Positions 13,365 through 64,000 of a DNA stretch of 64,000 nucleotides are shown here, one piece after another (the first letter of the stretch is position 1; every line of letters begins with the position of its first letter). Under the pieces are notes generated by a model. The model did no database searches. It was not told the origin of the DNA and saw only the letters and a program-made list of their open reading frames with translations. Location: contig OZ296655.1 in the NCBI GenBank assembly GCA_965655095.1, forward strand, positions 66,526,001 through 66,590,000. Reading direction: 5' to 3'. Origin of the DNA: Haplodiscus bocki. Its lineage: Eukaryota. The position numbers and the translations under genes were made by a program.

Positions 13365-14010
13365 TCAAAATTTTTTTTGTCTCAGTACCAAAAAATTTCG
13401 TTGGGGAACACTTTGGTGTTTCAGAGAATCTCGGGTATCGAAAAATTTTGATGCAACGTATTACGATTGTACGTTGGAAATTTTTTGTCTCATTCTATCG
13501 AAAAACTTCGTAGGGGACCCTTCTTTGTTTCGGGTATCGAAAAACTTTTTGCATGAGGGGGAGAGCACGATTTTCTGTAGACTATTTTATGTCTCATAGT
13601 ACCGAAACTTTCGTAGGGGAACCCTTTAGGGTTTTTCTAATTTCGAGCATCGAAAAATTTTATGCACAAAAGGGGTATATCACGATTTTCTGTCGAAAAT
13701 TTTTTGTCTCACAATACCAAAAATTTCGTTGGGGAACCCTTCTGTGTTTCAGAAAATTTCTGGTATCGAAAAATTTTATGGATAAGAAGGGGGGAGGGAG
13801 GGAGTGCCACAATTTTCCATCGAAAGATTCTTGTCTCACAGTACAGAAAAACTTCGTGGGGGAACTCTTCTGTGTTTCAGAAATTTCCTGGTATCGAAAA
13901 GGGGGTGTCACGATCCGAAATCGTAAAAATATTTGGCACGATACGGACTCGAACCCGTGACCTACCGCTTCAAAACCATGTTGTCCTAACCCCACTGCTG
14001 CCATTTATTT
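13365..14010 (-). mobile_element. tRNA-derived SINE-like element with a tandemly repeated body
   Basis: Minus strand 14003-13934 reads TGGCAGCAGTGG (A-box)...GGTTCGAGTCC (B-box)...GTGCCA, followed by about five 105-130-bp units containing GTCTCA-AGTACC-AAAA-TTCGT-GGGGAAC. Confidence 0.65.
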
Positions 14011-18595: not shown

Positions 18596-19523
18596 TGCTG
18601 ATGAGAATGTGATTGTCGGTCAAAATGTGTACTTGGGACCGACAGTTCACTTACCTAGTCAAGTATGTTTCGTGGAGTCTAATCATTCGATTTTAATTCG
18701 TGAGATGTGTTATTTCTTTCGGATGCAATTTCAAAAGAGGTAGTACCTATGCCTTCTTCACTTTTTGAATTTACTGCAACACTAGCAGCGTCCCGTCCAG
18801 AAGACGCATTTTTTGACCTGACTGCGACTTCAATTCCTGGAGTGATGATATTATCAATCGCTGTCGAAATTGCGTTCCTCATTTGTATCAACCACACGGC
18901 TCAAGTCCCCATCAATGCTTTCAATGAAACATCTCTCGAAAGTTCAATTTTTCACCGTATTCTCATTGGATGTTTTATACTGTCAATGTTATTCCTATAA
19001 AATTCTCGGTCAGCAAGATCGTTGTCGACCACAACGTTTGAATTTCCACTGCTTGCAGTGCCGCCGATAATTACATCTCGATCGGAGTCATCTAAAAGGC
19101 TAAGGAGCCCCCTGTTTTTCTGCCGTTTTTTTCGAATCGAAACAATGTTTGCTTTGACAAGTGGGTTACACTTTCAGGAAAAACTTATTCAAACAAAAAA
19201 CTTTCAATATAATTGGTTATCGAATGGTATTACAATTAGAATAAAAACTGCAGTTTTGTTATTAGTTTCGACTAACTGTTATGTACAGACATTCTTGATG
19301 ATCTGGTTTCAGATCTGAGTCAGCTTCGGGTCAGAATTCTTTTGGTTGACTTTCTGTTCGGCCACCAATGAGCGTACTCAGCTTGATGACGTATTACCTG
19401 TAACTCATGACTAAATTCAAAATAAAAAAATTGCTGCCACTTTTTGTATGACGTCGTTGTTATATCATCCCAAAATTAACGAGTATTTGTAATCAGAAGG
19501 AAAAATGCCGAAAAAATTTGACA
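18596..19523 (-). mobile_element. Family-C LTR 3' part, cut by assembly gap
   Basis: NAISTAIDNIITPGIEVAVRSKNASSGRDA matches NAILVAIDNIVAPKIELAIRSINASSGRDV of 52288-52956; upstream DNA matches 45720-45900. Confidence 0.85.
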
Positions 19524-19723: not shown

Positions 19724-19766
19724 AAGCTTTTATTACCGTGCCGACAAAAAGTCAAACATTTTCCCA
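19724..19766 (-). mobile_element. Short family-B LTR fragment next to the gap
   Basis: Reverse complement of 50371-50413 (TGGGAAAATGTTTGACTTTTTGTCGGCACGGTAATAAAAGCTT). Confidence 0.7.
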
Positions 19767-20394
19767 TTCAACGATCATTTAAATGCAATTTAATTTTCAA
19801 TGACAATAACAGATCTTTATGGCCGTATCTTTATGTGGTCGTAAAAAATCATACAAATGACGCTTTCAGGGAACAACAGGTCCTTCGTAGCTGTTTTTCC
19901 TCACCAATGTTTACTGATGAAACCAAGCAAACCACCTGACTACTTCAATATCACGTGTGTTGACGACAATTTTGCAACGAAGATTTGTTTGTCACGATTT
20001 GTCGATACTTTTCATTCTTGATGTGCCATATATTTGCTTTTTCCGGAAGTGCAACCTATTATCGCCATGTAACATGCGGTGATATTGCTTTCATATACGG
20101 GTCAAGTAATAGTTATTGAGTCAGTTACAAGTTTGATGTCAGGAAATGGAATATCCTGACTGGTGAACGAACCCGCCGGTTAACTGAAGAAGACTGGACT
20201 CAATGTTCATCTAAAATTCAATCCAGAAAATTGAGAGTACTGCCAAATTATTTATTTTCTTGAAATTGTTCTTGTCAAAACTGAGACCTTCTAAGTCGAT
20301 CTTGAAATTGCTTTGTTAGAAGTTGTTTTTGTTGAACTTTTTTGTTGAATTTCATTGATTTTACGAGAAGCGCAATTTACATGTGAGAATATAT

Positions 20395-20938
20395 ATGGCT
20401 TCAGCCCGAAAGAAGAAACTGCAGAACAGCAGATCTTTAGACAATAAGATGCTTTCGATCAAAGTATAATTCCGGCAACTCAGCGAGTAGTGAAAGGCAA
20501 GATGTTGAAGTCAGAAGTGTTAATAAATTTGATCAAAACAAAATTTGTAGCAACGCAATCGACCAGAACTCCGTAGATAATCTAATTTTAGAGAAGAGCA
20601 TGACCGTTAGGATCACTAAGGAAAGGAATTGTCGTTGAGTTTATAGATTATGGATTTCAGATTTCCATTTTGGACGAAGTAGCGATATTATCATATTGTC
20701 TATCAACTTAGGAGTTAGTTCCATGAATGTAGCAACGGACAGAATGATACCACTGTCATGAATAATTTCGAACGTGAGGAATGGCCGGTGTGATTTTTAT
20801 TTTCCGAGAACGTCTGATAAAGTAACACTTTTCATGATTTCTATTTAACTGATTAGATTACAGAGTATAACACCGACGAGGCGACTTGACTTCTGGTCCC
20901 GAAAATACATTTTAACCGGCAATCACACACTCATCACA
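20395..20938 (+). mobile_element. Highly decayed family-C LTR 3' part
   Basis: ATG GCT TCA GCC CGA AAG AAG (MASARKK) at 20395; family end motif ACATTTTAACCGGCAATCACACACTCATCACA ending at 20938. Confidence 0.7.
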
Positions 20939-25990: not shown

Positions 25991-26040
25991 TTTCCTATTG
26001 GTCGATTATTCGATCACGTCATAATAGGGTATAAATACCC
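25991..26040 (+). promoter_or_regulatory. LTR core promoter (inverted CCAAT plus TATA box)
   Basis: CCTATTGG then GGGTATAAATACCC (TATA 26030-26037); conserved at 57934-57977 and 62663-62706. Confidence 0.6.
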
Positions 26041-26296
26041 CGTACTCTCTCACTTTATTCATTCGCTTTCCTACCGTCAACTGGCTTAACTCCCCGAGGC
26101 GAAACTCTTCCACTTTCCTTCCATCATATTTCTAGAGCTTAATTCTTGCTCTGAAAATATTCTAAAACAATTTTGAAACTTGTCTTTGCCAAATTCCTTC
26201 ATCGCCTCTTCACAATTATTCAAAGACTTTTTCGCCTGCAAAATCGTCTTAGCCGCAATTCACCAATATCCCGGAAATATTCAAAGACTTTCCGGC

Positions 26297-26475
26297 CACC
26301 AACAGCAGCAATCAACAGCAACCAGCAGCAGCAAACAGCAGCAATCAACAGCAACCAGAAGCAGCAAACAGCAGCAATCACCAGCAACCAGCAGCAGCAA
26401 ACAGCAGCAATCAACAGCAACCAGCAGCAGCAATCAACAGCAGCAACCAGCACCAGCGACCAGCAACAGCAATCA
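26297..26475 (+). repeat. CAG/CAA-rich 30-bp minisatellite inside the LTR
   Basis: Repeats of ACAGCAGCAATCAACAGCAACCAGCAGCAGCAA-type units; a short degenerate version lies at 58725-58805. Confidence 0.85.
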
Positions 26476-33572: not shown

Positions 33573-35149
33573 TCTTGCAGCACATCTGCGAAGCCTGCGG
33601 GCAACCGTTACCTGAAGAAGACACATCGCAAGACTGGAACTCTGCATTTCACTTTCAAAACATCTACTTTTATTCATATGTAACTTGCATGTAAAGTGAT
33701 CTGTAAATATACGGACCACTCTAGTGAACTGATCCAGACTAGGACGGAATCGTTACGGATTAAAACAGATATTCCATTAGTAATCAATCATGAGGTGCTA
33801 TATATACGTGATTTTTTAATGTATTTATTTAGTATAAAGCCACCTTATTAAATGTGCTGAAAGTGCTGTGAGTTCAATCAAGTTGACGTTGTCAATGAAA
33901 ATGACAAAAGCAAGTGAAGCTAAACAAATCAGACTCTAGGAGTGAATATTGGTTCCGTACGTGTTCTATCGCTACTAGTCTGGTGACGTCACCGCTAAAT
34001 CAATCCAACTATTAGAGACCTCTTACGCTGTCTTGAGATAGCCAATTACGGAGCAGTTCCGTATTCACTCCCTCTCGCCCCATAGCAGCACCGCTGTCAG
34101 CAACGCTATAGGCGAAAACGGAATTGTTCCGGAACGGTTTGGCAAAAATAGGGAAGGCACTAGAAACGTTCCTAGTTTTCACTTACCTTTCACCTAGTTC
34201 CTTTCCAAAAATCATAATGAACTTGATCAAGTCAGCACATGTTTTCTCTTCTATTTAAAGCAGCAAATACTCATGATATTATTTTATCTGTTACTTGAAT
34301 TATTCCGTACATCATCTTAATACATTTCCATTTATGGAAAGTTTGTGATGTAATGTTTTCAAAAATAAACAATATGTCGGCGTGGTAGCACGCATTTTGA
34401 CGTCCATTTCTGACGGTCCAGTCCCGCACATTTTTCGTCGGAAGATAAAAAAAAACGCGGCCTATGAGGAAGGAAATGGATTGAAAGGTGTTCATTTCCC
34501 GCCAGAGTCTACATTTTTCTTTTGTGGAGAATATGATTAAAGTATTTTCTCTGACCTTTTACCTTGATTTGGCGTGTGAACCGCCAAGAAACAGGTATCA
34601 TTAGGAGAAACGAAGGTGTTAGTAATATTAATTTTACTTGTATCACTTACAACTAGTCGTATTTGTATCATTATTTTCTATCATTTCTACCAATTTTTGT
34701 TTTCTCAAGTTGGAATTGTTCAATAAAAAACGAATTCAATAGTCAACACATCTCCACAGTTTTCCCTTTCGATATGGCAACCTGAAGGAACAAGAAATAG
34801 TTGACAGCAGTTGCTAGAGATATTCAGGAAGGATCCCCTAGGGACAGCCAATCAGGAAACCCAGCCGTTCTTCGATTAAGCGAAAAGTACATCACTCAAG
34901 TGTTGGAAGAGATAGAAAGCAATTTAACGAAAAAGTTGTCGCAAGAGTTCAGTAGGACAGAGAGCAGACTTTTCTGTGCTTTATCTGAACTTGGTGAATT
35001 TTTTCTGAATTCGCCAGGCCAGGTACAAGCCGGGACCGTTCCGGAACATCCCGGAACATGAACGTAGAATAATCCTCGGCCTGAGGTAGATGCCTCTATC
35101 TACCGGTCCACTCAATCCATGGATTCAGTCCCAGAAGAAACATACTACA
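33573..35149 (+). mobile_element. Family-B solo LTR (decayed)
   Basis: Starts TCTTGCAGCACATCTGCGAAGCCTGCGG and ends ...CATACTACA; TSD TTGAC/GTGAC (4 of 5); broken ORF from ATG 34774 (YITQVLEEIESNLTKKLSQEFSRTESRL). Confidence 0.85.
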
Positions 35150-36682
35150 GTGACGTATCATCTGGCTGACGGCTCAGTTAACCGATTGTTCAGAAAATGC
35201 TACTAGCTTACTTCTGAAATATTATTAGCTGAGGTAGTGCGATTCGGTTACGTAGTAATTCCGAGCTTTAGGCGGAAGTCCAATACGTGTAATGCAAATT
35301 CGTTCTATAGCACAGTCGGTTAATTGAGCGGTCGGCTAATTAAATGGCACCCATAGCTAACACTATTGTGTTACGTCACCGCATCAACTAGTCTCATAAC
35401 TTCGAGTAATTTATTTGAAACATTTGGCTCAGTAGTACAACTAACTCTTTTGTCTGAGTTGTTCACCGAATATCTGAATTTCTTCTGAACGACTTCATTT
35501 TAGTTGGAAAATCTTGTGATAACAAAAACTGAATGACTACTCACGTGGTCAGCTATAAATCCCCAGTTGGTTTCCCTGAAAGACAAAAAGAACGTATAGT
35601 TGGAGACGAGTCTAGGAAATGTCAATATTTTTTTTCTAACTAATTACAATCATTGATCGCTTACGTCCTTTTGAAATCTTGTAACAATTTTTTTTCAAAA
35701 TGTATATTAAAAACTGTGGTCTAAAGGTAAAGGAAAATGTTGAGACGCTTTTCTGAATGAAAATCTATTGCATGATTTCTTTCAAAGAACAAATATTATA
35801 TTTTTGACAAGAATCTGACGTGAACGATAAAATGTGCTCACCATTAGTAATAGATATATTTAATAATTGCATTAAGATATTCCATTCTTAGCATAGTTTT
35901 TTTCACTCATTTTTCTTTTACCTTGCTATGCTTCCGAACAATGAAACTAGGGTCAATTTTAACCAGTTTTTGCGGCACCAGTACTCTCTTTGACAGCTGC
36001 CTTTCCAGATATCGTCTTCTACTCTTTCGTCATATCCAATTTTGTTCTCAGCCATCACAGTTCCTACAAAGATCAAAACATTCAAGACTTTTTTGGGAAC
36101 CATTGTAACCTAGCATCCACGCGCTGGTTTTGATAAAAGAGATCCAATTTATGAATCATTTTTCAGCAATTGTCAACTCAATAAAGGGAGATATTTTTGA
36201 TCTATATCGAAACAGAACAGCTTTTTTTTGAAGTATTAGTGATGATTTTTTATTTCATTTTCATTAAAATTAAATCATCAGATCTTCCAAACTCTCCTCT
36301 TTTCCTCAAAAAAGGTTTCTTCCCAAAAAATGCCATGATTTTCAAAGATTTTCACTCATGTTTATATTCCATTGATTTAAAAAAATTGAGTAATAGAAAT
36401 GTAATGGAAGTTTTGCAAAATTTGTATAAAAAATTTCAATAAATTGATTAAAAAACAGGAATCGAATGAAAATCTAGCTGACAATTGCATGGTGATTTGT
36501 CAAAGCAGGGTCTAAATGGCAAATATTGACCAAACGCGAGTCGATCCGATTTCATCAAGCTGGCAAAACGCCAACTTATTAAGGTCGACCCGCGTTTTCT
36601 GTCATATCAATCGCAACAACTTGCACAAGATCATAATGGGATGAATCTAGTCAAACCCAAGAAGCATTTGAGATAGTGGCTA

Positions 36683-43414: not shown

Positions 43415-44469
43415 GGTTTCAGGTCAGAATCTCCCAAGTTAAAATTTCCTTAGTCATAATCTCCTGAGTCAAAATCTTCGAAGTCAAGTTCTCCTATGCC
43501 AAACTCTCCTCTGTCAGAATCTCCTAAATTACTGAATAAAGTTATTGGCTCAAAAAATTGAATAATTGAGCTTAAAGCTGAAGTAACTTAAGCTAATTAC
43601 TTGTAATTATTTAATTAGGACTACCATTATATGTCACATTGGGTATTATGGCATTGGGTATTTTGGCATTGCGTATTTTGGCATTGGGTATTATGACTTT
43701 CGTAGTATGTCCTGACGCCCATTTCTGGGTATTTTTTCATTTCAAAAACACTTCTGTACTCGGGCTGGGGTATTTTCAGTATCCCGAGCGTTCACAATTT
43801 TTCAATAAATTCAGTTTCAGCAAAAGGGTATCGCAAAAATTTTTGGCATTCGTTTTTTGTATATGGTATATGCACACGGTTTTTGCCAAAGTTTTAGTTA
43901 AGTGAATTGCATTTTTACTTTTTGAATCCAAAAACTTGAAACTGGGCAAATGGGGTATCACATAAACTATTGGAAAGTCAAATCTTGAAATAAAATTGTT
44001 GAAATTGCAAAAAAAACTTGAAAAAAAAGACATTTTTTTCCTGCTATTCATGGGACCATACGTAGGCAAATTGTAAAGCTTCTTGAAAAACTTTCCAGTG
44101 AAATTCCATGAAGTCTACGTTTTTCCAATTTACACTTTTTTGAAGAGAAATTGTGGTTGTTGAGATTTCAACTTCTGAAGATAAACATTTTAGAAATGCA
44201 ACTTGCAATAATATAGAAAAGTTCTGCCAACAAATTATCGGTAAGTCCTACACCATTTTTTTAATTAGTTACGATTAGTTTACTGATTAACTTAATTAGG
44301 TTCGCGCGTCTTCGCATAATAATATAATAAGAAATTTTGCCTTCAGAGGTTTCAACCCAGGAGACTTTGGCTTAGGAGGTTTTGGCGTAAACGATTTTGA
44401 CTTACGAGGTTTTGACATCGGAGATTACGACTAAGGAGATTCTAACTTAAAAGATTTTGATATGTAACG
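43415..44469. mobile_element. Non-autonomous Mutator/foldback-like DNA transposon
   Basis: Perfect 9-bp TSD ATTTTAGAG (43406-43414, 44470-44478); inverted arms made of 15-bp units (GTCAAAATCTCCTAA left, TTAGGAGATTTTGAC right); a different 15-bp array (TGGCATTGGGTATTA) at 43630-43700. Confidence 0.8.
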
Positions 44470-44659: not shown

Positions 44660-46558
44660 TGTCGCAGGCTGACGCCTGTGACGGCCAGACATTCACAGTT
44701 AAACTTGGCAGTCTCTGCACGGGCACGCAAGTCAATCCGTCGCCCTTATACCCAGACTACAATATTGACAAAAATTCATTTGAATAAATGCTGTATGAAG
44801 GATACCTACCTTATTTCACAAACCTACCATACCTACATATATATACACCTACGCAAATACATATATATTCCAAAATATTGACGTGTAAGTAACAAAATCC
44901 CTACTATCAACAAATGCGTTAGCATCAATAGGAATATCAGTCCAGACACATGTGTACGGTACTCAATCGAGGCGCAGTGTTTTACTTAATACTGATTGGT
45001 CAAAACAATTAATTCTGTCAAGTTTCTGACCAACTAGCTGCACTATAAGTGGGTGGTCAAAAGTTGGTCACAAAGACCTACTTTTGACCAGTTTGTTCAG
45101 AGCACGTGGCCACACCTAAAAAGGAAAAACGGCAAAACAAAGCACTGAAAGCCGAAATTTGACCAATACTAATCTAATGACGCTTTGAATGCTGTTGATA
45201 CTTAATACAAGAACATATACCTAAATTATATTTTATTCCAAACCATGCAGTGCTTTTTGCCAGTAACTTTCCGGTGAAAATTTTAGTTTGTCGACAGACG
45301 GTAAAAGTGACCGCATTATGACCACCAAACATTAATCAACCCAATCCCATGAAAACAGTCAAGTATTACCATTTGTGCCATGCCGCACTGATTTAATCAT
45401 GTAATGATTTTTATTAACGTGTGTCAAAATAAACAGGCTGTCGCGACATGAAATGTCCCTTCATTATGGGAACCAAGTTAGCTGATATCATATATACTTC
45501 AACCATCCCATTGAGGCTCCTGGAAACACCTTTTTTTTCGTATGCATGTAATCGTGTTTCATGTAATTTTGCTTGCACCTTTTGCTTTCGTTTAGTTTGT
45601 CACCACCAAATTTTGCCTGTCATCATTTTTCTGAGTCCCTTTTTGATGTACAAAAATGTGCTATTTTTAGAATGATACCATACTGTTGTCACGTAGGAAC
45701 CGGCATACTTACTTAATGTTTGATTTAGTTATTGTTACAGGTATGACGTCAACGAGTCAAGTGCTTTAATTTGCTATCAAACAGAAGGTCAACGAGAAGA
45801 ATCTTGACCCGAAGTTGACCCGAAGTTGGAATCAGATCATCAAGAACTCTCCTGTAAAGCATTTGCTCAGAACTGTAAACAAAACTGAGAGCTTTCAATC
45901 TCATTGCAATATTGCTTAGTTGCCGTTTATCTCAAAGTATTGTTGTTCCATTGATTCGTTTTTGCTATAAGAATAGCGAACTTGTTGAAGCAAACATGGT
46001 TTCAACTCGGAAGAAATAACAGTCAAATAGAAGGCTTCTTAGCCAATTAGATGACTTTGATCAAGATGTTTATATTGGTGACACTGCAAACAACGGACAA
46101 AAAAATGATATAGTCACTAATGGTACAGTTGACCGAGAATTTACTGTCATTAATAGTGGTAGTAATTCAATAGCCAAAGGGAATACGGTGAAAGTTCAAA
46201 CATTGGAAAGATGTTTCAATGAAAGGATTGACAAGGAAATGAACAACATCGTTGATACGATTGAAGATAGAATCCAAAACGCAGTTTTGGCCACGATTTT
46301 GAATAATATCACACCAAGGATTGTTTTATCAGTTGGGTCAAAAATGCGTCATCTGGACCAGACGCTGCTAGTGTCACGGGATCTTCGGAACGCGGAGAAC
46401 GCATAGGATTACTGCCTTTTTTGAAAACGTATCCAAAAGGAACATTGCATTTCATGTATTAAGTGCGAATGATGAGACTCGAAGAAACGTTCCAGACGAG
46501 GTAAGTGAATTGTTGGTCTCAGAAACACATTTTCACCGGCAATCACGCACTTATCACA
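44660..46558 (+). mobile_element. Family-C solo LTR, 1899 bp
   Basis: TGTCGCAGGCTGACGCCTGTGACGG...CACTTATCACA; TSD GTTTC/GTCTC (4 of 5); decayed MVSTRKK ORF from about 45996 to the LTR end. Confidence 0.88.
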
Positions 46559-47531: not shown

Positions 47532-47939
47532 TCAACAAGACAATAAATATTTGTGAGGATTTGTTTCTGCCCCTGAGATGGGGGAAGAAACCTCCACTTC
47601 AGGCCCAGGATCGTCTGAGGGACGATCCTCATTGGTTCCCTGGTTTTCTGAATTGTTGCTCCTAGAGGTTCCGGGGGCAACTACGGAACAAGTCCGAACT
47701 TGTGGGTTCAAGAGAAACTCGTCAAGTTTCGACAAGGCTCCCAAAATACGTGATTCCGTCCTGCTAAATTCCTTTGAGAGCTTTTTAGTAACTCTCCCTT
47801 CAATCTCCTCGGAGACCTGAGAGATATACTCCTGAGTAAGTTCTGGATCTAGAACGTTTGGTGCTCTCCCACTTCTAGTACTTTCGGGTGTTTCCCTTGA
47901 AACTGCTGCTAACTTTCTCTTATTTCTCAACGTTGCCAT
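47532..47939 (-). CDS. Intact LTR-encoded Gag N-terminal segment (basic N-terminus plus predicted coiled coil), 135 aa, last residues from flank
   Basis: MATLRNKRKL...YISQVSEEIEGRVTKKLSKEFSRTESRILGALSKLDEFLL...NPH; the homolog at 50824-51221 continues into a capsid-like Gag. Expression unknown. Confidence 0.6.
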   Translation of the reverse strand: MATLRNKRKLAAVSRETPESTRSGRAPNVLDPELTQEYISQVSEEIEGRVTKKLSKEFSRTESRILGALSKLDEFLLNPQVRTCSVVAPGTSRSNNSENQGTNEDRPSDDPGPEVEVSSPISGAETNPHKYLLSC

Positions 47940-49337
47940 TACGCTTGGGAAAAGGTTTTCTCAGTGGTGAAGACTGAATTTTCTACTTTTATTTCTTGTA
48001 TCAAAGTGAGGTCTCTCTCTTTAATTATGAGGGAACAAGTCTTCTCAGTACAAACAGTTAAAGTTTTAATAATTGTACAGTTCGGTAAGGCAACAATTTA
48101 AATAATAAATATTGTACTTTCGTTTCTCCTATTTATACCTTTCCTTGGCGGGAAACATAATTGTTTACACGCCAGATCAAGGTACAAATAGGGAAAAGTA
48201 CTTTAATCATATTATATATCAAAGAAAAGATGCCGACTCTGGCGGGAAATAAACACCTTTCCATCCATTTCTTCCCTCACGGACCGCGTCCTTTCCATCT
48301 TTCGACAGAAAAGAGTACGGTCCGATCCGTCGGAAATGGACATCAAAGTGGTTATTCCCGCGCCGACACAATAAATAAAAACATAAACAAAGATCAAAGT
48401 CATTTCCATACAGGGAATAAATACAATAATACACTTGGAAAGTAATCTAAAGTATGGAAAATAAAGGCTTACATTCTAGAAAGATTCATGTTTTCATGTT
48501 GCATCGATTTAAAGTCATTTCTAGAACAAACTAGGCGTAAATCCTAGCCCGTTCCACGTTTCTACTAGGCTACGGCTCACTTCAGCCGTGGTGGCACGTG
48601 GCGGCTACGTGCCCCTTGTAGCACTGCCTTCCGCAGTACTACTGAGAGGAAATGAATCCGGTGGCACGTAGACAACACGTGGCCGACCAAAGTTGCGTAG
48701 CCTAATAGCGCATCTGATTGGCTAAGAGCTCTAGTGACATCACCAGATTAGTTACGACGGAACACATACGGAACAAATATTCACTTTTGAAGTCAAGCTC
48801 TGTTCTAATAGTTGATCTATTGAAACTTTTGAAAACTTTTGAAGCTGTCAATCTAAATAGATTACTGCACAATCAAAGGTGGATTTATATAATAATTAGT
48901 TAGATTAATTATATAAAATAGCACCTAATATAAATATAACAATACACTGAATATCCGTTTGTTCCGTATCTGTGCCGTCCCAATAAGGATCAGTTCACTA
49001 GAGTTCCACGTACCGGGTACGTGCTTTTTCACAATATGGGGGGGCACGTAGTTACTACGTGCCTTTTATGAATGGAATCGTATGGGTGGCACGTGGACGC
49101 CACGTGCCACTTACGTATCCCATTCGTGTTTTTGTGCATTAGTGGGGGCACGTATATATACGTGCCCATATGTGTGCACACAATTAAAATACATGATTTA
49201 TCATAAATAAAATCATCAATTTAGTAGTCCCAGATATAAGTCTGATAGAGGCATAGTTTATCTCCTGCTTGATGGGCCTGGGGTGTCCTTTGTTGGTGGA
49301 ATCATCTGCCCGCAGGCTTCGCAGATGCGCTGCGACA
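47552..49337 (-). mobile_element. Family-B solo LTR, 1786 bp
   Basis: Minus strand TGTCGCAGCGCATCTGCGAAGCC...CCTCACA with a perfect 5-bp TSD ATATT/ATATT. Confidence 0.93.
48130..48154 (-). promoter_or_regulatory. Family-B LTR promoter: E2F-like TTTCCCGCC plus TATAAATA
   Basis: Conserved at 50603-50629 on the plus strand; an AATAAA lies about 50 nt before the ATG (47988-47993 minus; 34722 in the other copy). Confidence 0.55.
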
Positions 49338-50823
49338 ATATTTTATTCGAACGGTCTTTTGAGCAAATTTTCATTGACGGAAGTGAATTGCGAAAGCTGT
49401 TACGTAATGGTTGCATAAATGAGATTTGCCAGCAGCATTCATTGAACTAATCAAATTGAAAAACGCTTACGTACGTCTAAATGTACTACATTGTATTCAT
49501 TAACCCGTGTCATTTCGGCCACTTAAAATAAATTTTTGCGCTGCTGTTTCAACATTTGTCGCACCACGTCTGCGAAGCCTGCGGAGAGACTCTCCCTACA
49601 AGAAAGAACATTCCTGGACCCTCCAGAGACTGAAACAGACTTTACAAACACTAAATTGTATGTTTTATTTACAAATTAAACGTATTTAAGATATCTGATA
49701 CTGAGCAGTTACGTATTATGTAATTTTATAAAAATTGCATGTAATCGATACGTATTAACTACGTAGCATCCCAGTGCACTGATCCAGATTGGGACGGAAC
49801 TGTTACGGAACAAAATGAATATTCACCTAAGTCTATGTTCCTAATATAATCTACTTTGAAGTTGCTATTTTATTACTTATTTGTGTACTGATCATAAAAA
49901 TCCACCTTTTCAAAAGTTAAGTGCAGTAATTTAAAGCGAATATGGCAATGTCAATAAGTTTGATTAGATCGATTACATCTGCAGTAAATAGAGCTTGACT
50001 TAAACGTGAATATTTGTTCCGTACGTGTTTCGCCGCCACCAATCTGGTGACCTCACTTCAATTTCATTCCTTTGTGCTACTATGCTCTGCCGTTTCTAGC
50101 CAATTACGGAAAAGTTCCGTATTACCACGTTTTCACTCCTATAGCCGCAATGCTACAAGCAATGCTACAAAATGAATACGGAACCATTCAGGAACGGCCT
50201 TGTAAAAATGAGAAACAGAACAGTACGTGCTAGTAGAAAACCTAGTACCGGTCTAAAATGTTCCGAAAAGATGATGAAATATGTATTTTGAGCATGTAAA
50301 TTGAATCTTTGTATTATTTTATGTGATCAGACAAATTACTTTTATTATTATTTTTATTGATTTCCGATTTTGGGAAAATGTTTGACTTTTTGTCGGCACG
50401 GTAATAAAAGCTTTGATGTCCATTTCCGACGGATTAGGCCCGTACATTTCCTGTCGAAAGATGGAAAAGATCCGGCGTATGAGGGAAGAAATGGATGGAG
50501 AGTTGTTTATTTTCCACCAGAGTCGGCATTTTGCTTTTGTAGTCAATATGATTAAAGTACTTTTCCCTATTGGTACCTCAACTTGGCGTGTGAACAACTA
50601 TGTTTCCCGCCAAGGAAAAGTTATAAATAGGAAAGATGAGAGTACTATCATTAATATGAACTATTGTATTGTACTGTATAACCAGTTTCGAGTACTTTTC
50701 AATTTGGTTAACTGTTGTTGGTTGGACACCTACTTTTGTTAAAAAAAGGTCATTTTCAGTTGTGTTAAAATTCATTCGAGAGACAAAGTAATTCAATCTT
50801 CACAACTGTTGAAATTTTTCTCT

Positions 50824-52001
50824 ATTCCAAAGTTAAAAAACAAGAGGAAGTTAGCAGTTATGGCAAGGGAAACACAAGAGTATCCTGGGAACAACCAGTC
50901 GCAAAACTCCTGGAATCACTGAGGAGTACAAAGCACAAGTTTCCGAGGAGACCCAGAGAAGGGTTACTAAGAAATTATCCCAGGAATTCAGCAAGACAGA
51001 GTCCGGCATCTTGGGTGCTCTGTCCAAGTTGGACGAATTTTTCTTGAACCCACAGGTACGGACACGCTCCGGAACCGTTCCAGGAACATTCCGCAACACA
51101 AACGGCGAAAACCAGGAACCAAATGAGGATCGTTTCCAGGATGATCCTCATCCTGAAGTGGGACCCCCTGTCTGTCAGTCCCGTCATTCATCTGATTCAG
51201 ATCCAGAGGAGGCTCCTCACATGGTGACAGGTGTTCAAGAAGAGTTTCGCTTTTGTCCTCACAAGGTGACAGGAGTTCAAGAAGTGATTCCCTATTGCTC
51301 CCCTGGGACTTCTTCAGGAAAACAAAAGAAGGCGCGCTCGACAAGTCAGCCACAAATTCGCAGTGAGAACACCCCTGCAACAATTGAAGCAGACCAGATT
51401 TTGTTGGCGCTTTAACAATTGGCAAGTCACAATCTTTCTACTAATTTCAACAAAAACATTATCAGAATATTGAAATTGCCCAATTCCCTCACGACAACAA
51501 TGCCTACATTTGATGGGAAATCGGAAAAAATTGAATTTTTTGAAAATCTGCTCCGAACAAGTTTGAAAATTCACAACCAACTCAGGGAAGAAGTCAGAAT
51601 ACACTATTTCCACTCTCTCATGCTTGTTGATGAGTGATGCTTTGCTGACGTTCAAAAACATCGGCATCCCCCGCAGAGAGAATTTTTCAGAAATCCTGAG
51701 TGTGTTTCGTAAGAAATACGTAAAACCCCAGTCAATGGCTACGGCGAAACACAAATTTCAACAGTTAGTTTTCAATCCAGCGAACCGGAACTCAAATGAT
51801 TTTCTGTAGGAGCTCCAGAAATTAGCAAAAGACGCATTCGGAGTTGCTGCCCAAGCAATAATTGAACAATTCATATATGCAAAATGCTTCTCCACCTGAA
51901 GAAATCAATTAATCAGGCTCATTTGGAGAATGGGACCTATGAACAGATTGTGGCGCATCTTGAAACGGAGGTCGAGCTAAATGGTTTGGAAGCTCCTGAC
52001 G
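50824..52001 (+). pseudogene. gag: Retrotransposon gag pseudogene (capsid-like)
   Basis: LKNKRKLA...LSKLDEFFLNPQ...PHMVTGVQ...MPTFDGKSEKIEFFE...IHYFHSLM...KKYVKPQSMATAKHKFQQLVFNP...; stops and frameshifts present. Confidence 0.8.
51222..51236 (+). promoter_or_regulatory. Primer-binding site, tRNA-Leu-like
   Basis: TGGTGACAGGTGTTC directly after the LTR-terminal CA; resembles TGGTGTCAGGAG, the complement of the tRNA-Leu(CAG) 3' end. A second copy lies 42 bp downstream. Confidence 0.65.
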
Positions 52002-52287
52002 AAATACGAAATTTTCCGAGAAGATCGAAAGATGGGTTACAAAGAAATTATCCGAGGAATCAGCAGGACACAGTCCTGCATTTTGAGTGCACTGTCCAAG
52101 TTAGACGAGTTTCTTCTAAGCCCACAAATACGGACATTCTCTGGAACGACCCGGGAACATTCCGGAACACTGACGTAGGAAACCAGGAACCAAGCGGGGA
52201 TCGTTCCCAGAATGATCCCCGTCCTGAAGTGGAGCTCTCTGCCGGTCTTTTCGGCAATCTAACTGATTCAGACCCGGACGAGACCTC

Positions 52288-52956
52288 TCACAACATTTTT
52301 CCACGATGGCCAATTTTGCAACGTTTTGCGATTGATAACTTCCATATCTTTGTATGCGTGTGATGAGTCTCAGTGCTATCTCCTGACGCTACGTGGTGAG
52401 TGAGTGATTGTTGGTCAAATTGTGTACCCGCGAACGACAATTCGCTTACTCTGTCATGGGGATTGCGACGAGTCTCATCGTTTGTATTTGTCAGGCCTAA
52501 TGTACTGTTGTTTTCAGATGCGCTTCCAAAAGAGGTGTTAATCCTCTCGTGATCCCTACGTTCTGAGTTTCCAGATACACTGGTTACATCCCGTCCAGAA
52601 GATGCATTTATTGACCTTATAGCTAACTCAATTTTAGGGGCAACGATGTTGTCAATAGCGACCAAAATTGCATTCTGTATCCTATCTTCAACGGTATCCA
52701 CAATATTACTCATTTCCCTATCAATCCTTTCGTTAAAACACCTCTCCAAAGTTTTCACATTCAATGCATTCTCATTAACTGCCGAAATAACATTAGAAGT
52801 ACCACCGGTAAAATTCTGGTCATCAATACCCTCATTGACCACAACATTTTCTCGCCTCTGGCTTGCGGTATTGCCAATGATCACGTCCTGGTCGAAGTCA
52901 TCTAATTGGCTGAGGAGTCTTTTGTTTGACTGCCTTTTCTTTCTGGTAGAAACCAT
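52288..52956 (-). CDS. Intact LTR-encoded ORF (probable Gag N-terminal segment; basic N-terminus plus coiled coil), 222 aa with about 23 aa from flank
   Basis: MVSTRKKRQSNKRLLSQLDDF...LERCFNERIDREMSNIVDTVEDRIQNAIL...THH; four decayed homologs in the window. Gag identity is by analogy to family B. Confidence 0.6.
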   Translation of the reverse strand: MVSTRKKRQSNKRLLSQLDDFDQDVIIGNTASQRRENVVVNEGIDDQNFTGGTSNVISAVNENALNVKTLERCFNERIDREMSNIVDTVEDRIQNAILVAIDNIVAPKIELAIRSINASSGRDVTSVSGNSERRDHERINTSFGSASENNSTLGLTNTNDETRRNPHDRVSELSFAGTQFDQQSLTHHVASGDSTETHHTHTKIWKLSIAKRCKIGHRGKML

Positions 52957-54293
52957 ATTTGTTTAATAACTGAATTGTAATAACAGTGAAAATTAACAAT
53001 AACACAAAGAGTAAAATGATACTTCAAATTATAAAGTTAGCCAAGAGGTTTAACAAGCACAAAGATTAGTGTCAGTTATGAGAATGTTTTAATCAACTGT
53101 TTTTCAGGATAGCAGTTTTCTCAACCGTTTTTTGTTGTAACAATTTTCCTTCTCAACTGCTTTTTGTAGTCACTAATTTCCTTCTGATGATTGTTTTTCC
53201 TTTCAGGTTCGCCCCTCTTCCTCCATCTTCGTCAGCCAATTGGGTAATCCTTTTCCTGACGTCATGTGCTCGGTTTTTATTTATATTGAACATCAAAGGG
53301 GGTTCAACCCGGACTATGCATTTCATCATAATGACGTCAGTTTTAAAATAGAAGTACAAATAACATCAAAAGGGGTTTGGCCCGAAATATATTTCATCAT
53401 CATGACGTCAATTTTAAAAATAGTAACAAGAATAGCATCAAAGAATATATGCCGCAAAACAATGACCATCAAAAATATGGTTATGGAGGCTGGATAAACG
53501 TTCAGGGACAGTAAAATCATGTTCACATGCATATTCCATGTAGTAACTGGTTAAATCTAGTTATTATATACTAAATATGGCAAAAATATTAATATTAAGC
53601 TTCATGTACAAGTTTTAACTTTAGGTTAATGTATAGTGGTCAAACGTGGGCGTTATGACCATGTTTTGACCGGATAATATTTGTCGCTCAGGATTTGATA
53701 CTACTCAGCACTAAATAATTTTATGTCACGTGATCACATAATTATGCATTCATATAGGTACATAGCAACATTTTCTAGTTATATTTATTCGTGCATTGGC
53801 TTTCTGATTACGTTTGGCCGTATTTCGCCTTTTGTTTGGAAGCGACCATTTGCATTGAGCAAAGTGGTCAAAATCAGGTCCCAGTGACCAGTTTTGACCA
53901 TGTTCAGGCGGCGCTTCTGGTTGGTCAGCGTTTGATACGATCTCTTGTCTTTGACCAATCAATTTTGAGTATGAGACTGTAGATAAGTTGCGCACTGTAA
54001 ACATTTGTCTATGACCTTTCCTTCATGATACAAACTTCATCGATATTTGTATGGATTTTGTATATAAATATATAAATATTCATAAGATCATATATATATT
54101 TATATATGTTAATATATAAATATGTATGAAATATAACTTCAAAATGGGGGGCATGTTTATCCGGCGGTTTATTAAGCAATAGTTTTATTATATCAGTCTT
54201 CTAATAAGGGCAGAGCATGGCCCTGTGTGACTGAGTTCTGTCCATTGTAGTTGACGGAGTAGATCATGCCGTTACAGGCGGCAGCCTGCGACA
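52359..54293 (-). mobile_element. Family-C solo LTR, 1935 bp
   Basis: Minus strand TGTCGCAGGCTGCCGCCTGTAACGG...ACTCATCACA with a perfect 5-bp TSD ATGCG/ATGCG. Confidence 0.93.
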
Positions 54294-54489
54294 ATGCGCC
54301 AAAATATTTCTGAAATTAATTAAATAAAACTTTCAAACTACTGCGTTTTTTTTCAGACAGACCATGATTTACGGATGAGTACTGCTGTTGGGCTATGTGA
54401 TGCAGAAGAATTTCATGACAAAAAGTAGATCTCGTTAAGAATTTCAATGTTCTTCCGTCTTACAACTTTAGGAGCCTATCATAGCTGTA

Positions 54490-55829: not shown

Positions 55830-58098
55830 TTTAGCAGGGAAAACTTGCATGTTGAATCCAAGGATAAAAATAAACTTTTTGGAAAATATACGAATGTAAA
55901 GCAACTTCCATGGAAATTTCATGCAACGTGCAAAATCTTGCAAGAAATTGCCAGCAACATGGAAGACTTCTCACAAAATATTCTTGCAAAAATTCGAGGG
56001 AATGAAAATTTGGTTTCACACAAAATTGTAATCACTACTTCACCTAAAAAAAGTAGCAATAGTTATTTTTTTGGCTCGACTTCAAATATTGAAACATTAG
56101 AGCAAACTTTCAACTCTGAATCGAAGGGAGTTTGAACCTACAAGAAATGGTTTTCAGTTGAGAAGAATTTAGCTTTACCCTGCAGCATTTCTTTTGTGTA
56201 GGTTTTATTACACAAAAAGGTTTTGTACAAAAAGGTGAAAGATCGATTAATTTTCCCAAGTTTATCAGCTAAAAACCTATTTTCTGTTTTCAACACTTCA
56301 GGGGTCACAATCAAGAAATCAATAAAACGGATAAATTATCTATTCAACCAGAACTTGGTTGCACGCTTTATGTGAAACGTGCATGAAAAACATCTAATGT
56401 AGGTGAAAAATCTTGTAAAACAGAAATGCTGTGGTTGCTGTCAAATTTTGTAGCTTTTAGGTAAAGCTCTTAAAAAATACCCATGGTGCATGGAAGAAAG
56501 TTGCACACATTCTAAATCAGACTAAATACATGCATGTGAGCTTCTTCCTGAATCATTGACAATCTTNNNNNNNNNNNNNNNNNNNNNNNNNNNNNNNNNN
56601 NNNNNNNNNNNNNNNNNNNNNNNNNNNNNNNNNNNNNNNNNNNNNNNNNNNNNNNNNNNNNNNNNNNNNNNNNNNNNNNNNNNNNNNNNNNNNNNNNNNN
56701 NNNNNNNNNNNNNNNNNACGATTTATTACTTTACTTCTGCAGTCGTGGAACAGAGGTGAAGCGTATGACGATATTTTGCTTATACAGCTGTTCGACTATT
56801 TCTTGACACAAACAGATGTGCTGAAAAATTTGAAGTTTGGGAAGTTTTATAGCTTCATAAATTGTTGCAAGAATGAAATAACGTAACATCAAGGGAATTT
56901 GTGGAGGTTCCTACAAGAATTTACAAAACGACTTTAGAACGGATAAAAACTCGAGAACATTGCTTCAAAAAGTTCAAGCAAAATATAGATCATATGAGCG
57001 ATGACGTGTCAAGGTATTACGTACTGAAAGTAACAGGACAAATAAGAGAGCAGTTTTTCACCTTTTATTCATGAGTAAGTAAGTGACAAAAACCGTCAGA
57101 TCGTGTATGACACGAAACTTTGTATGATGTCTTTTCCTTTTGCTGCTGAGATGTTTTATTTCCTGGGAACTCACAAAACATACGGTTTCGAAGACAAAAA
57201 GTTCAGATGCAATATCATGAAAAACGGTTTACTTTCCCAGTTGTCGCGTTATAGCTAACGCTTAAACTAATGTAAAAGGAAAGAAAAGGAAAAATTCTAA
57301 ACGCGTTGAAATGTGGTTCAACGCACAAAATAAAGACACGTGCGCGTTAGCTACATTTTGTAGCTGGTAGATGAAAGCGGCTTGAATATTACTGACTTAC
57401 TCGCTTACCGGACGGCAGCCTTAGTTCTTTCCCTTTTACTTTATATTACTCTCCTCTTCCCTTTTACTTTACTCCTTTTCCTTTTAACGTTATTTTCTTT
57501 CCATTCTTGCTTGGTTAAATTTATTCTAAATTCTCTTCCTGCTTCTCTTCGGACAAAACTATTCCAAGTCCCATTTTCATTCTGACTTAGAAAAATTTCC
57601 TCTTTCCTTCTACAAATTCTATACTCTTGCCATCGGAGTATAAACGGTGTCCACTAACGCTAGCTTCGGTAATAGCGTGTGCTGATTCCGTGGATGAACT
57701 TCGGTTCTGAAGCATGAGTGGATCTTAAACTGCACGACCCCCACGAGGTTGCTAGGCAAAGAGAATTGACGTTACTCATAGATCAAATCTCACCTCGTCT
57801 GCTGCCGTGGTATTTAGAATTTACTCTAAATTCCGAGTTACGGATTAAATATGCAGAAACCGTCTTTTTTCCAAAATTCAACTATTGCTACCGACTAGGT
57901 AACCTTCGTTGACGTTGCTATTTGCGGCGCTCTCCTATTGGTCAATTACTCGATTCCGTCATAGTGGGGTATAAATACCCCGTACTCTCTCATCCTATTG
58001 ATTCTCTTTCCTACCGTCAACCGGCCTAATTCCCCGAGGCGAAACTCTCTCCCACTTTCCTCTCATCATATTTTCTAGAGCTTAATTCTCGCTCTGAA

Positions 58099-58715
58099 AA
58101 TATTCTAAGACAAGTATAAATCTTGTCTCTGCCAAATTCCCATTCTTCGCATCGAAAAATTTCTAAGACAAGTCTAAATCTTGTCTTTGCTAAATTCCAA
58201 TTACCTCTCAACGAAAATATTCTAAGACATTTTTAAGTAATGTCTTTACCAAATTCCAATTGCCTCTCCTTGAAAAAAATCTATGACATTTTCAAAAATT
58301 GTCTTTACCAAATTCCAGTCGCCTCTCATTGAAAATATTCTAAGACATTTTCAAATAATGTCTTTACCAAATTCCAATCGCCTCTCATTGAAACTATTCT
58401 AGGACAATGTTAAAACTTGTCTTAGTCAAATTTAGTCATCACCTCTTCGAAATATTCTAAGACAATTTTAAAACTTGTCTGAGTCAAATTTCTTCATCAC
58501 CTCTTCGAAATATTCTAAGACAATTTTAAAAATTGTCTTAGCCAAATTTCCTCATCGGCTCTTCGGAAATATTCAAAGACTTTTTCGCCTGCAAATTTGT
58601 CTTAGCCGCAAAACGTCAATTTCCTGGAAATATTCAAAGACTTTTGCGCCTGCAAAATTGTCTTAGCCGCAAAACATCGATATCTTGGAAATTTTAAAAG
58701 ACTCTTCCGCCTACA
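58099..58715 (+). repeat. About 11 tandem 58-61-bp units with an internal AAGACA...TGTCTT hairpin (also 62828-63444)
   Basis: Consensus close to AATATTCTAAGACAATTTTAAAACTTGTCTTTACCAAATTCC...CCTCTC...GAA. Confidence 0.9.
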
Positions 58716-59120
58716 AGCAGTATCCCAGCCGCAACCAGCAATCATCCAGCAACCAGTAGCAACCATCAGCAATCAGCCGTAATCAACAACAGACAACATC
58801 AACCCGACCAATGCCAGCCCCTAACGTAAAAGACTATATGAGTAATTCCCCTTTTCCTTACGCGCAGTTATATTTCCTTCACGGTTCAATATATTGAATT
58901 TTCACTGTTTATAATTTAAAATTCTTTTGTATTCTTCTTCATAGCTCACAAGTCCTTGCTTGAAATCACGCAATCCCTTTGTTCGCACGTTAAGCAAGGC
59001 ACCCTAATGAGACTTATAAATAATAACCGTCGCTATAGTATAGTAGTGCTGATCGAGTCAAACGCCAGCACAACTGAGTAATTAATAGATTTGCAAAACC
59101 CCCTACCACGTGCAACAAAC

Positions 59121-60386: not shown

Positions 60387-63300
60387 AGCCTCCAAAATCT
60401 CTTTTATATATTTTTTTTACCCCCTTCAAACTTTTTGTAACTTAACTATAGTTGATTGCACCTTCTTCATTGCTTACGTCTAATCCAACATCTATTCTTC
60501 TAATCCAAATAACCGGCATCAGACATGCATACAGAAACCTTCTCAGCAAAGATTATCCACGCAATTAATTACCTGGAATTCTTGACCCGCAAGGAAATCG
60601 ATCATAATGCCATGGCCACACCAAAAACCAACCAAAATTAACTCTTCGCTGCAAATGGAAAACAAGCAACTCCAATAGAAGCATATAAACAAGGAAAACT
60701 TTTGGAAAACCAGTATCAAACTTTCAAAATTCTGACGAAAACATTTCTTCAAAGTCAAGATCGGGATTGCTGAGAATCTACTCGCTGCAATGCTCAAACC
60801 AAAACAGCCTAAACAGAAGGGTTCGCCAGCCTCTTTGTGACCCTAATAATCTCCGAAAAATGGATGAATGGGAAAACCAAAGCCTGGACGATCTTCTGGA
60901 TTTTAGACCGAGACCCTGGGGTATTTCACGAGGTGTCACTGATCAGCATCCCACCCACGATTCAATAACTAAATTTGAGACAGTTGTTCTTCATGCTTAC
61001 AAGCCTGGAACAATTTCGAAATTACTTTCATGGATCCCCTAAATCAATTTTTCTGAAATATTCTATTCGTTTTCTTTCCGGATAATAACTGAAGGGCCCA
61101 CACTTCTCTTACTTGTTGAAACTTCACTAGCAGACCAAAAGGAACTGAGCCTGACGAAGCTTTCCAGACGACATTACTCTCAAACAAGCATAACAAACGG
61201 CCTGAAAATAGGCTGACAGACTCTAATAACTTTGATACTAATTACGGAAGAAGCAAATTTCATTTGGCACTTTTTTGACGATACTGGGTTCGATCCAGCG
61301 TCCTCTAAAAAAATCTCGGCGTCGTTTTAATAGTAGTGGAGCTACTACTATAAAATTTTAGCTCCTACTCTGTCTTAGTGCCCACAGAGCGCTGGTTTGA
61401 TAATAGGGCATTCGTCCATAGCTATTCCTCTGGCAGAATAGAGAGACCTTTTCCACTTGGGAATCCGGTGGCGAAGTAAGCTATTTTTCTTTTCTCCCGC
61501 TAACCTGATTGCAGATGAAAGTTAGGTTACACAAAGCTTACAGTAAACATCTTGATTGCAGCTAGAAGATTATTGGGTCTTGGCCAGCTGTCCTCATTAT
61601 CCCAGACGTAATATATCCTTCACATTCAACTTCTAGTACGACGTACTTTTCTAACCCAGCCTCGGCTGACGAACAAAACGAGAACAATTAGCAAATCACA
61701 GCTCAACTCCCGCCTCCACGATGGTTTATTTTTCGACTTCGCTACATGGGAAATTATCTTTCGGGACAACTGACGAAACGACCAGTATATTCAGATAACA
61801 TTTTGCCTACTCGAGTGAAATGTGGTTCCCCTACAAGCTGTCACTGCTCTTCCTCAATCAGGATTTTACACTCTCTAGAATTGTTGCTTTGCCAAACTCT
61901 ACCCACTCATCCCGTTCACTTTTCCCTAGCACCCCACAATCATTTTTCTATCCCTTTAACCCCGGTGAGTTGTCGCGTTATAGCTAACGCTTAAGCAAAT
62001 GTAAAAGGAAAGAAAAGGAAAAATTCTAAACGCGTTGAAATGTGGTTCAACGCACAAAATAAAGACACGCGCGCGTTAGCTACTTTTTGTAGCTGGTAGA
62101 GGAAAGCGGCTTGAATATTACTGACTTACTCGCTTACCGGACGGCAGCCTTAGTTCTTTCCCTTTTACTTTATATTACTCTCCTCTTCCCTTTTACTTTA
62201 CTCCTTTTCCTTTTAACGTTATTTTCTTTCCATTCTTGCTTGGTTAAATTTATTCTAAATTCTCTTCCTGCTTCTCTTCGGACAAAACTATTCCAAGTCC
62301 CATTTTCATTCTGACTTAGAAAAATTTCCTCTTTCCTTCTACAAATTCTATACTCTTGCCATCGGAGTATAAACGGTGTCCACTAACGCTAGCTTCGGTA
62401 ATAGCGTGTGCTGATTCCGTGGATGAACTTCGGTTCTGAAGCATGAGTGGATCTTAAACTGCACGACCCCCACGAGGTTGCTAGGCAAAGAGAATTGACG
62501 TTACTCATAGATCAAATCTCACCTCGTCTGCTGCCGTGGTATTTAGAATTTACTCTAAATTCCGAGTTACGGATTAAATATGCAGAAACCGTCTTTTTTC
62601 CAAAATTCAACTATTGCTACCGACTAGGTAACCTTCGTTGACGTTGCTATTTGCGGCGCTCTCCTATTGGTCAATTACTCGATTCCGTCATAGTAGGGTA
62701 TAAATACCCCGTACTCTCTCATCCTATTGATTCTCTTTCCTACCGTCAACCGGCCTAATTCCCCGAGGCGAAACTCTCTCCCACTTTCCTCTCATCATAT
62801 TTTCTAGAGCTTAATTCTCGCTCTGAAAATATTCTAAGACAAGTATAAATCTTGTCTCTGCCAAATTCCCATTCTTCGCATCGAAAAATTTCTAAGACAA
62901 GTCTAAATCTTGTCTTTGCTAAATTCCAATTACCTCTCAACGAAAATATTCTAAGACATTTTTAAGTAATGTCTTTACCAAATTCCAATTGCCTCTCCTT
63001 GAAAAAAATCTATGACATTTTCAAAAATTGTCTTTACCAAATTCCAGTCGCCTCTCATTGAAAATATTCTAAGACATTTTCAAATAATGTCTTTACCAAA
63101 TTCCAATCGCCTCTCATTGAAACTATTCTAGGACAATGTTAAAACTTGTCTTAGTCAAATTTAGTCATCACCTCTTCGAAATATTCTAAGACAATTTTAA
63201 AACTTGTCTGAGTCAAATTTCTTCATCACCTCTTCGAAATATTCTAAGACAATTTTAAAAATTGTCTTAGCCAAATTTCCTCATCGGCTCTTCGGAAATA

Positions 63301-64000
63301 TTCAAAGACTTTTTCGCCTGCAAATTTGTCTTAGCCGCAAAACGTCAATTTCCTGGAAATATTCAAAGACTTTTGCGCCTGCAAAATTGTCTTAGCCGCA
63401 AAACATCGATATCTTGGAAATTTTAAAAGACTCTTCCGCCTACAAGCAGTATCCCAGCCGCAACCAGCAATCATCCAGCAACCAGTAGCAACCATCAGCA
63501 ATCAGCCGTAATCAACAACAGACAACATCAACCCGACCAATGCCAGCCCCTAACGTAAAAGACTATATGAGTAATTCCCCTTTTCCTTACGCGCAGTTAT
63601 ATTTCCTTCACGGTTCAATATATTGAATTTTCACTGTTTATAATTTAAAATTCTTTTGTATTCTTCTTCATAGCTCACAAGTCCTTGCTTGAATTCACGC
63701 AATCCCTTTGTTCGCACGTTAAGCAAGGCACCCTAATGAGACTTATAAATAATAACCGTCGCTATAGTATAGTAGTGCTGATCGAGTCAAACGCCAGCAC
63801 AACTGAGTAATTAATAGATTTGCAAAACCCCCTACCACGTGCGACACAGATTTTTTTCAAAATCTCAACAGCAAGCTACTGCAGTAACTAGATACCTGAC
63901 GTATGATCAAACTTAGTGTCCCAAAACATTTCAAGCAAAAATGCGATGGATTAAGATCTTTGATGTGGGGACAAACCTCTGACATTTTTGCAAAACCGAA

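Follow-up and report, generated by a model that had tools for sequence, protein, structure and literature searches.

Results

Two families of LTR retrotransposons with coding LTRs

The window (the whole 64-kb stretch of DNA that we analysed) is animal-like DNA, probably of an acoel; it has a GC content of 33–41% and carries many decayed LTR elements, among which families B and C are the key ones here (Table 1). Both have coding LTRs; gag starts inside the LTR and stays open through the LTR end and the PBS. The 1.9 kb LTR of family C encodes the start of gag in its final 188 codons, and the 1.7–1.8 kb LTR of family B holds ~136 gag codons (136 LTR-coded residues in 80 of 114 relatives). The LTR-coded parts of the two families are unrelated (E 2.8), and their capsid regions are related (E 4e-8).

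Table 1. Coordinates of the family B and family C features in the window
Feature	Position	Strand
Left TSD ACATT of the family B element	49552..49556	+
Right TSD ACATT of the family B element	52293..52297	+
Family B 5' LTR, TG...CA; terminal ~136 codons are the gag N-terminus, frameshifted in this 49557 copy	49557..51221	+
Open gag stretch across LTR end, PBS and spare unit; 186 aa stop to stop (P0238)	50855..51415	+
First 42-bp copy: 7 terminal LTR nt, live PBS (from 51222) and gag codons	51215..51256	+
Second 42-bp copy: spare LTR end (51263) and spare PBS (from 51264, first base changed)	51257..51298	+
Broken gag remnant (stops, frameshifts), then internal deletion that removes pol; weak Retrotrans_gag, E 0.043	51416..52009	+
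Family B 3' LTR remnant; end at the first-site position; subfamily differs from the 5' LTR	52010..52292	+
Family C solo LTR, extended form, 1935 bp; TSD CGCAT at 52354–52358 and 54294–54298	52359..54293	-
Absorbed 33-bp unit: decayed PBS, spacer and new LTR end	52359..52391	-
Fossil (old) family C LTR end; terminal CA became CG	52392..52401	-
LTR-coded family C gag N-terminus, 188 + 11 codons, frame intact	52360..52956	-
Family C solo LTR, short form; TSD 4/5 (GTTTC/GTCTC)	44660..46558	+
Family C partial LTR, short form, old	19977..20938	+
Family C partial LTR, short form, decayed end, cut by N gap	18596..19523	-
Family B solo LTR, short form; TSD AATAT	47552..49337	-

Families B and C are LTR retrotransposons. 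Their TG...CA repeats are flanked by 5-bp TSDs (5/5 for C 52359, 4/5 for C 44660, 5/5 for B 47552 and 5/5 for B 49557–52292), a TGG-starting PBS adjoins the family B 5' LTR at 51222, and a gag signature is present (zf-CCHC at E 4e-4 and DUF1759 at E 0.011 in P0241, DUF1759 on 3 of 120 rows, and the weak Retrotrans_gag match in the B remnant). Pol is deleted from the family B element and missing from the family C copies. The model of the predicted gag fold reached a pLDDT of 36, and the profile search found no PDB match for gag, only NC knuckles at E 0.4–1. There is no tRNA gene in the 64-kb window.

Elsewhere in the window, 27624–30537 and 30539–33452 form an exact 2.9-kb tandem duplication (99.8%), either an assembly artefact or a very recent duplication. 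The 43 bp at 19724–19766, beside the N gap, are the identical reverse complement of 50371–50413 in the family B LTR and are probably a scaffolding artefact. Unrelated tandem arrays lie at 5347–5807 (28 bp), 13373–13900 (115 bp) and 43416–43546 (15 bp).

A family C LTR extended by one 33-bp unit

The family C solo LTR that runs from 54293 to 52359 on the minus strand has the TSD CGCAT at both ends, and because this 5-bp match is perfect on both sides, 52359 is the true LTR end. The family C copies 44660, 20938, 18596 and 16150 all end at the equivalent of 52392, 33 bp short of it; the original prediction of a 33-bp overrun relative to the first three is thereby confirmed, and in a TSD-bounded solo LTR. 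As also predicted, the extension begins, directly after the decayed old end (CA to CG), with a 10/12 match to a tRNA-Leu-type PBS 12-mer. At ≤2 mismatches on both strands of the 64 kb, this 12-mer has five matches, three at these junctions and two elsewhere, so the chance of such a match at the exact extension start is ~2 in 100,000. The same start matches the window's two family B PBS copies at only 8/12, and the last 10 nt of the 33-bp extension match the ends of the short copies 20938 and 44660 at 10/10 and 9/10. Three TGACGTCA palindromes, which we take to be CRE-like, precede the gag start in the family C LTR (about 53260–53410, minus strand); one of them mimics a PBS junction, and a 4-mismatch junction-like match near 53268 is better read as one of these palindromes.

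A spare junction in family B

The 42-bp tandem duplication predicted for family B, with ends at 51221 and 51263, is present: the two copies are 35/42 identical and the LTR-end heptamer starts each, although TRF at a score of 40 did not list them. The second PBS copy lacks the first T of TGG. Both the B solo LTR running from 49337 to 47552 (TSD AATAT) and the 3' remnant, whose last base is 52292, terminate at the first site. The family B boundary shows no movement within the window, and the 51257–51298 unit is an unused spare.

Over 47 aa the 3' remnant shares 81% identity with P0232 and 53% with P0238, and the element's two LTR parts, 77% identical, represent two subfamilies within one TSD pair. 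Because the 3' remnant belongs to another subfamily, the two LTRs are no clean within-element control, and the comparison of 5' with 3' LTR as a within-element test was dropped. In 49557–52292 a deletion joins gag to the 3' LTR, and the element is possibly a cDNA that recombined with an older solo LTR. The B solo LTR carries, at 47552–47600 (minus strand), an 18-bp in-frame deletion just before its end relative to the 51221 copy. Two more decayed family B LTRs, at 33573–35150 (plus strand) and about 4500–4680 (minus strand), apparently end at the first-site position.

LTR ends occupy discrete unit boundaries among relatives

Protein searches matched 2695 family C and 3670 family B ORFs, of which we used the best 120 of each, together with 150 cluster representatives and 120 long gag proteins as further relatives. 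These relatives are protein ORFs only, taken without DNA or TSDs, and their LTR ends were labelled by hand (an automatic end caller overshot); the ORFs extend past the LTR end and the PBS into a gag that has a CCHC knuckle. The C search ranking favoured extended copies, which are over-sampled, and because copies share ancestry, row counts correspond to perhaps 10–15 lineages. Rows that stopped short of the anchor were left out (78 of 268 in the C set, leaving 190, and 6 of 120 in the B set, including P0239, which is extended by eye), as were 4 of the 120 long gags that had no downstream anchor, leaving 116.

All 190 C rows reach the old end, from which, by hand label, 65 pass directly into unshared sequence, 103 do so after shared residues, 8 run directly into gag and 14 are internal or unclear. 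The shared residues in the 103 extended rows number 11, 14, 22, 25, 33, 35, 46, 49 or 58. Because the LTR ends in CAC|A, the residue after a true end must be of the type encoded by an A-starting codon; it is so in 101 of 102 extended rows and in 165 of 167 overall, vs. 40 of 98 in a control one residue later, and in family B in 87 of 91 vs. 31 in the control. As the next residue is nearly always of this type, the inferred ends are supported as LTR ends. The labelled rows show LTR ends at discrete unit boundaries, 0–58 codons beyond the old end.

The array units, 10, 11 or 14 residues long, have a PBS-encoded motif at their start and an LTR-like end. Arrays of 11–64 residues, whose lengths are sums of 10, 11 and 14, occur in 89 of the 116 gags with both anchors, and 27 have no unit. 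Fresh near-identical repeats lie downstream of the short end in P0304 and P0261, and the absorbed unit of P0259 consists of a PBS start and a recopy of the last 8 LTR codons. Aligning many LTR ends, the check that came with the original prediction, thus returned variants of whole codons that begin with fossil PBS motifs and end like LTRs; random phase without PBS similarity was not what we found. No out-of-frame unit was seen among the relatives, including two sets whose scoring excluded the extension. The predicted multiples of three are real, but they result because gag crosses the junction, and by themselves they do not distinguish one mechanism from another: since gag demands the frame, in-frame-only units show selection.

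Three further observations concern unusual rows. P0121 (family B) has a ~100-residue tandem duplication of the LTR-coded region including the LTR end, which is either a much larger step of this sort or a pair of tandem LTRs. In P0008 and P0013 the LTR end is followed by ~18 nt of PBS- or tRNA-like sequence and then by unrelated sequence, possibly insertions that retained a tRNA-templated tail; these two and P0505 have Val-Gly at residues 5–6, as the human LeuCAG probe would give in frame (a post hoc comparison). Residue usage does not support reading the units as tRNA copies beyond 18 nt.

The LTR ends at the first intact site

The arrays are polar, running from decayed units through the first intact site to mostly intact spares, with ≤1 mismatch in 56 of 79 downstream spares vs. 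19 of 100 upstream absorbed sites. The live four-residue motif is retained in 0 of 103 absorbed first units, 'intact' being defined on four residues and the upstream sites being non-intact by that same definition. For a comparison of sites with neighbours we left out 20 of the 116 gags (14 without an exact intact site, 6 without a close neighbour); in the remaining 96 internal copies the first intact site coincides with the end of the nearest LTR-terminating relative in 82 (shuffle mean 23, max 40, 10,000 shuffles), and 14 of the 96 disagree with this rule. Of the 42 copies that carry spares, 37 have the relative's LTR end at their first intact site and none at their last. Among LTRs of the main B lineage, 91 stop at the first site and 0 clearly at the spare (P0199 is ambiguous), and one B sub-lineage has absorbed a 14-codon unit, with the first site dead and the next one live (P0226). 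These protein arrays show the LTR ending, as its end is inferred here, at the most upstream intact site.

Since a spare is essentially never the LTR end while an upstream site is intact, creep accompanies loss of the upstream site and not duplication alone. The proposal that a downstream PBS copy takes over priming holds insofar as absorbed fossil PBS units exist; it fails insofar as a copy by itself is insufficient (37 vs. 0 of 42, and 91 vs. 0 in family B).

Short LTRs are older and extended LTRs nested

We built a C tree from the upstream part of 167 rows (23 of the 190 were too short), in which all deep rows are short; its root has long decayed branches, and the three outgroup rows do not form one clade. 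The extended C rows, except P0259 and the internal P0107, fall inside a derived group of 123 (support 96), with at least six changes; an AU test does not reject one common origin for all the extended C rows (p 0.068, on 62 rows that comprise every one of the 29 short rows and 33 of the 93 extended). Terminal branches longer than 0.15 belong to 34 short rows and 1 extended row, in a search that over-samples extended copies. In family B the extended clade (8 rows, support 87) is young and sits inside a clade (support 95) that also includes 4 short rows. One 10+14 unit pair occurs in two states, as an intact spare in the short lineage of P0451, P0469 and P0479 and, decayed, as an absorbed part of the LTR in a long lineage. 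P0403, P0441 and P0494 represent extended lineages with newly gained spares. All this points the same way, to short forms that are older and basal and long forms that are nested and young.

One C clade contains an array series of 11, 22, 36 and 46 residues, which suggests that unit-precise losses may occur as well. The ratchet that had been proposed is borne out in its stepwise growth and in the nesting of long forms; because arrays also seem to shrink, it is not strictly one-way.

Discussion

A stepwise model for movement of the LTR end

We consider it likely that the LTR end moves stepwise because the junction is duplicated, the duplicate persists as a spare, and the spare takes over on loss of the upstream site. 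The gag ORF begins deep in the LTR and continues over the LTR end and the ~11–13 nt tRNA-Leu-type PBS. The terminal LTR bases, the PBS and a few codons have been duplicated repeatedly into arrays of 30-, 33- and 42-bp units, and selection on gag would explain why only in-frame units occur. Intact spares then lie downstream of the live site, inside gag, with the LTR still ending at the first intact site. The primer site sets the minus-strand start and hence the U5 end (in the cited part of PMC5371799). When the upstream site of a master element loses its terminal CA or its tRNA pairing, priming would move to the next spare and to the integrase end that comes with it, and strong-stop DNA would carry the dead units into both LTRs. 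Fresh spares accumulate behind the new end, where the cycle would restart. Loss of the upstream site would act as the pawl, since a site that still worked would bring back the short LTR in the next round; decay may precede the switch or follow it. On this model the window's C copy has probably passed through one full step and its B copy stands at the stage of an idle spare. Unit-precise deletions and inter-lineage recombination may also shorten or reshuffle arrays. Units may be born by slippage around plus-strand transfer, with which the Val-Gly of P0008, P0013 and P0505 as part of a tRNA-templated tail would fit, and out-of-register template switching is a probable contributor.

How much of the LTR the process can account for is limited. 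A scan of the upstream 188 C codons with a profile of 146 junctions found no fossil junction (best mean -6.1 vs. -6.6 when shuffled, the median of real junctions being 21.9; the scan in family B covered three full rows only), and DNA junction look-alikes in the LTR are at chance level (~1 per LTR by shuffling). With no fossil junction in those codons, creep explains the LTR tip only: as far as the sequences go, it covers at most about 58 codons there and not the whole coding LTR. Family A in the window (57242–59117 and 61971–63846, plus strand) is a young, internally deleted element with 1876-bp LTRs that differ at 8 positions; its LTR is non-coding and has 59–61-bp tandem arrays, its PBS is different, and its frameshifted gag starts after the PBS, so long LTRs occur here without the creep process. 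(Family A-related fragments lie at 2155–2597 and 25569–26358.) The suggestion that creep could explain the coding LTRs is therefore not supported.

Alternative explanations

When RNAs of different lineages are co-packaged, out-of-register template switching between them at similar-looking copies of the junction could build long LTRs in one step, with the upstream sites decaying later; we regard this as possible, though short of probable. Two separate C clades, that of P0052/P0088 and the 25/35-aa clade, have arrays that finish in the same terminal unit, and a C unit of 14 aa is similar to a B unit at 5 of 8 residues outside the PBS part despite the unrelated LTR-coded parts (flank null 0–1 of 4789 8-mers; the best of 36 pairs, picked after looking). 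This route, however, still requires downstream priming and later loss of the upstream site, and an extended LTR with an intact first site occurs in 0 of 103 rows; it probably supplements the duplication and takeover model and does not replace it.

We think it unlikely that spare junctions are selected for a function of their own (extra primer-tRNA capture, decoys for tRNA-fragment silencing, or a gag linker), with boundary shifts as a by-product. Spares are common, being present in 11 of 12 internal B copies and in 43 of 102 C copies with an intact site, and they are better preserved than absorbed sites; but youth alone could explain the preservation, and gags without any unit exist (27/116).

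A strict ratchet, in which any downstream PBS copy primes, growth is one-way and the whole 136–188-codon coding LTR was absorbed in this way, strikes us as quite improbable. The gag N-termini do resemble a PBS-encoded unit start (a four-residue start is shared by 102 of 115 full C rows, and one by 61 B rows), the start-codon context of copy 44660 matches the junction 15-mer with 5 mismatches, and two copies have a weak junction-like match ~30 nt before the short C end. Against this, the upstream C codons yielded no fossil junction and DNA matches at chance level, spares stay idle while the first site is intact, the graded array series within one clade suggests losses, and the family A LTR is of similar length yet non-coding. 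We find it highly doubtful that gag holds backup att/PBS cassettes swapped even between unrelated families, that the entire 400–560-nt coding U5 was so made and that the gag start codon is a fossil CA|TGG junction, the start codon part being a weak lead only. That long forms are ancestral and short LTRs arose by unit deletion is extremely improbable, for although a few short rows sit, weakly supported, among extended ones (P0068, P0111, P0118) and the position of the root is insecure, short copies make up nearly all of the oldest ones (34 vs. 1), short too are all four diverged C copies in the window, the extended B clade is nested and young, and decayed units could not yield the intact spares of short lineages.

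Comparison with known systems and significance

Ty1 gag has just a few codons in the LTR and Ty1 uses a tRNA-iMet primer, and we know of no junction arrays in that element. Families B and C differ in having 136–188 or more codons in the LTR, with an end position that varies in unit steps, and in a PBS that is Leu-like and not iMet-like. The likeness to Ty1 lies only in the gag-over-PBS layout; the PBS lies inside the Ty1 GAG ORF (cited part of PMC4974528), which subjects the junction to coding constraint. Steamer and related C-clade Gypsy elements resemble families B and C in primer type, a 12-bp tRNA-Leu-type PBS adjoining the TG...CA LTR, and differ in their short LTRs (153–219 bp, with a single gag-pol ORF); the sections of PMC8905726 cited here do not mention duplicated junctions. 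Live B and C sites are one base off the human LeuCAG probe (as given in part of PMC3413118), the match being to that human probe. Drosophila gypsy and Ty3 have more than one tRNA site per genome, the gypsy 5' PBS is 11 nt, and the 5' site alone is needed for priming (portions of PMC1635307 and PMC5371799); their second site, according to the same portions, lies close to the 3' end and anneals to a different stretch of the tRNA, in contrast to a tandem copy with an integrase end.

The two-PBS MLV and HIV-1 vectors are laboratory constructs, whereas the process in families B and C is natural, repeated and in frame, with the first intact site dominant. In those engineered vectors a downstream PBS can prime, and dual initiation is frequent. 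In the literature covered, at abstract level and outside Repbase entries and subscription journals, we found no account of junction arrays or of stepwise movement of the LTR end.

The U5 end is usually treated as fixed by one primer site, and families B and C show discrete in-frame shifts of it. With the intermediates all preserved over hundreds of copies, they offer a natural record of primer-site choice in which the first intact site wins, a rule that is specific and testable. Solo LTRs with long ORFs would also lead gene callers to count thousands of host proteins, as the numbers of matching ORFs indicate. Stepwise creep of the LTR end would be a route by which coding DNA enters LTRs.
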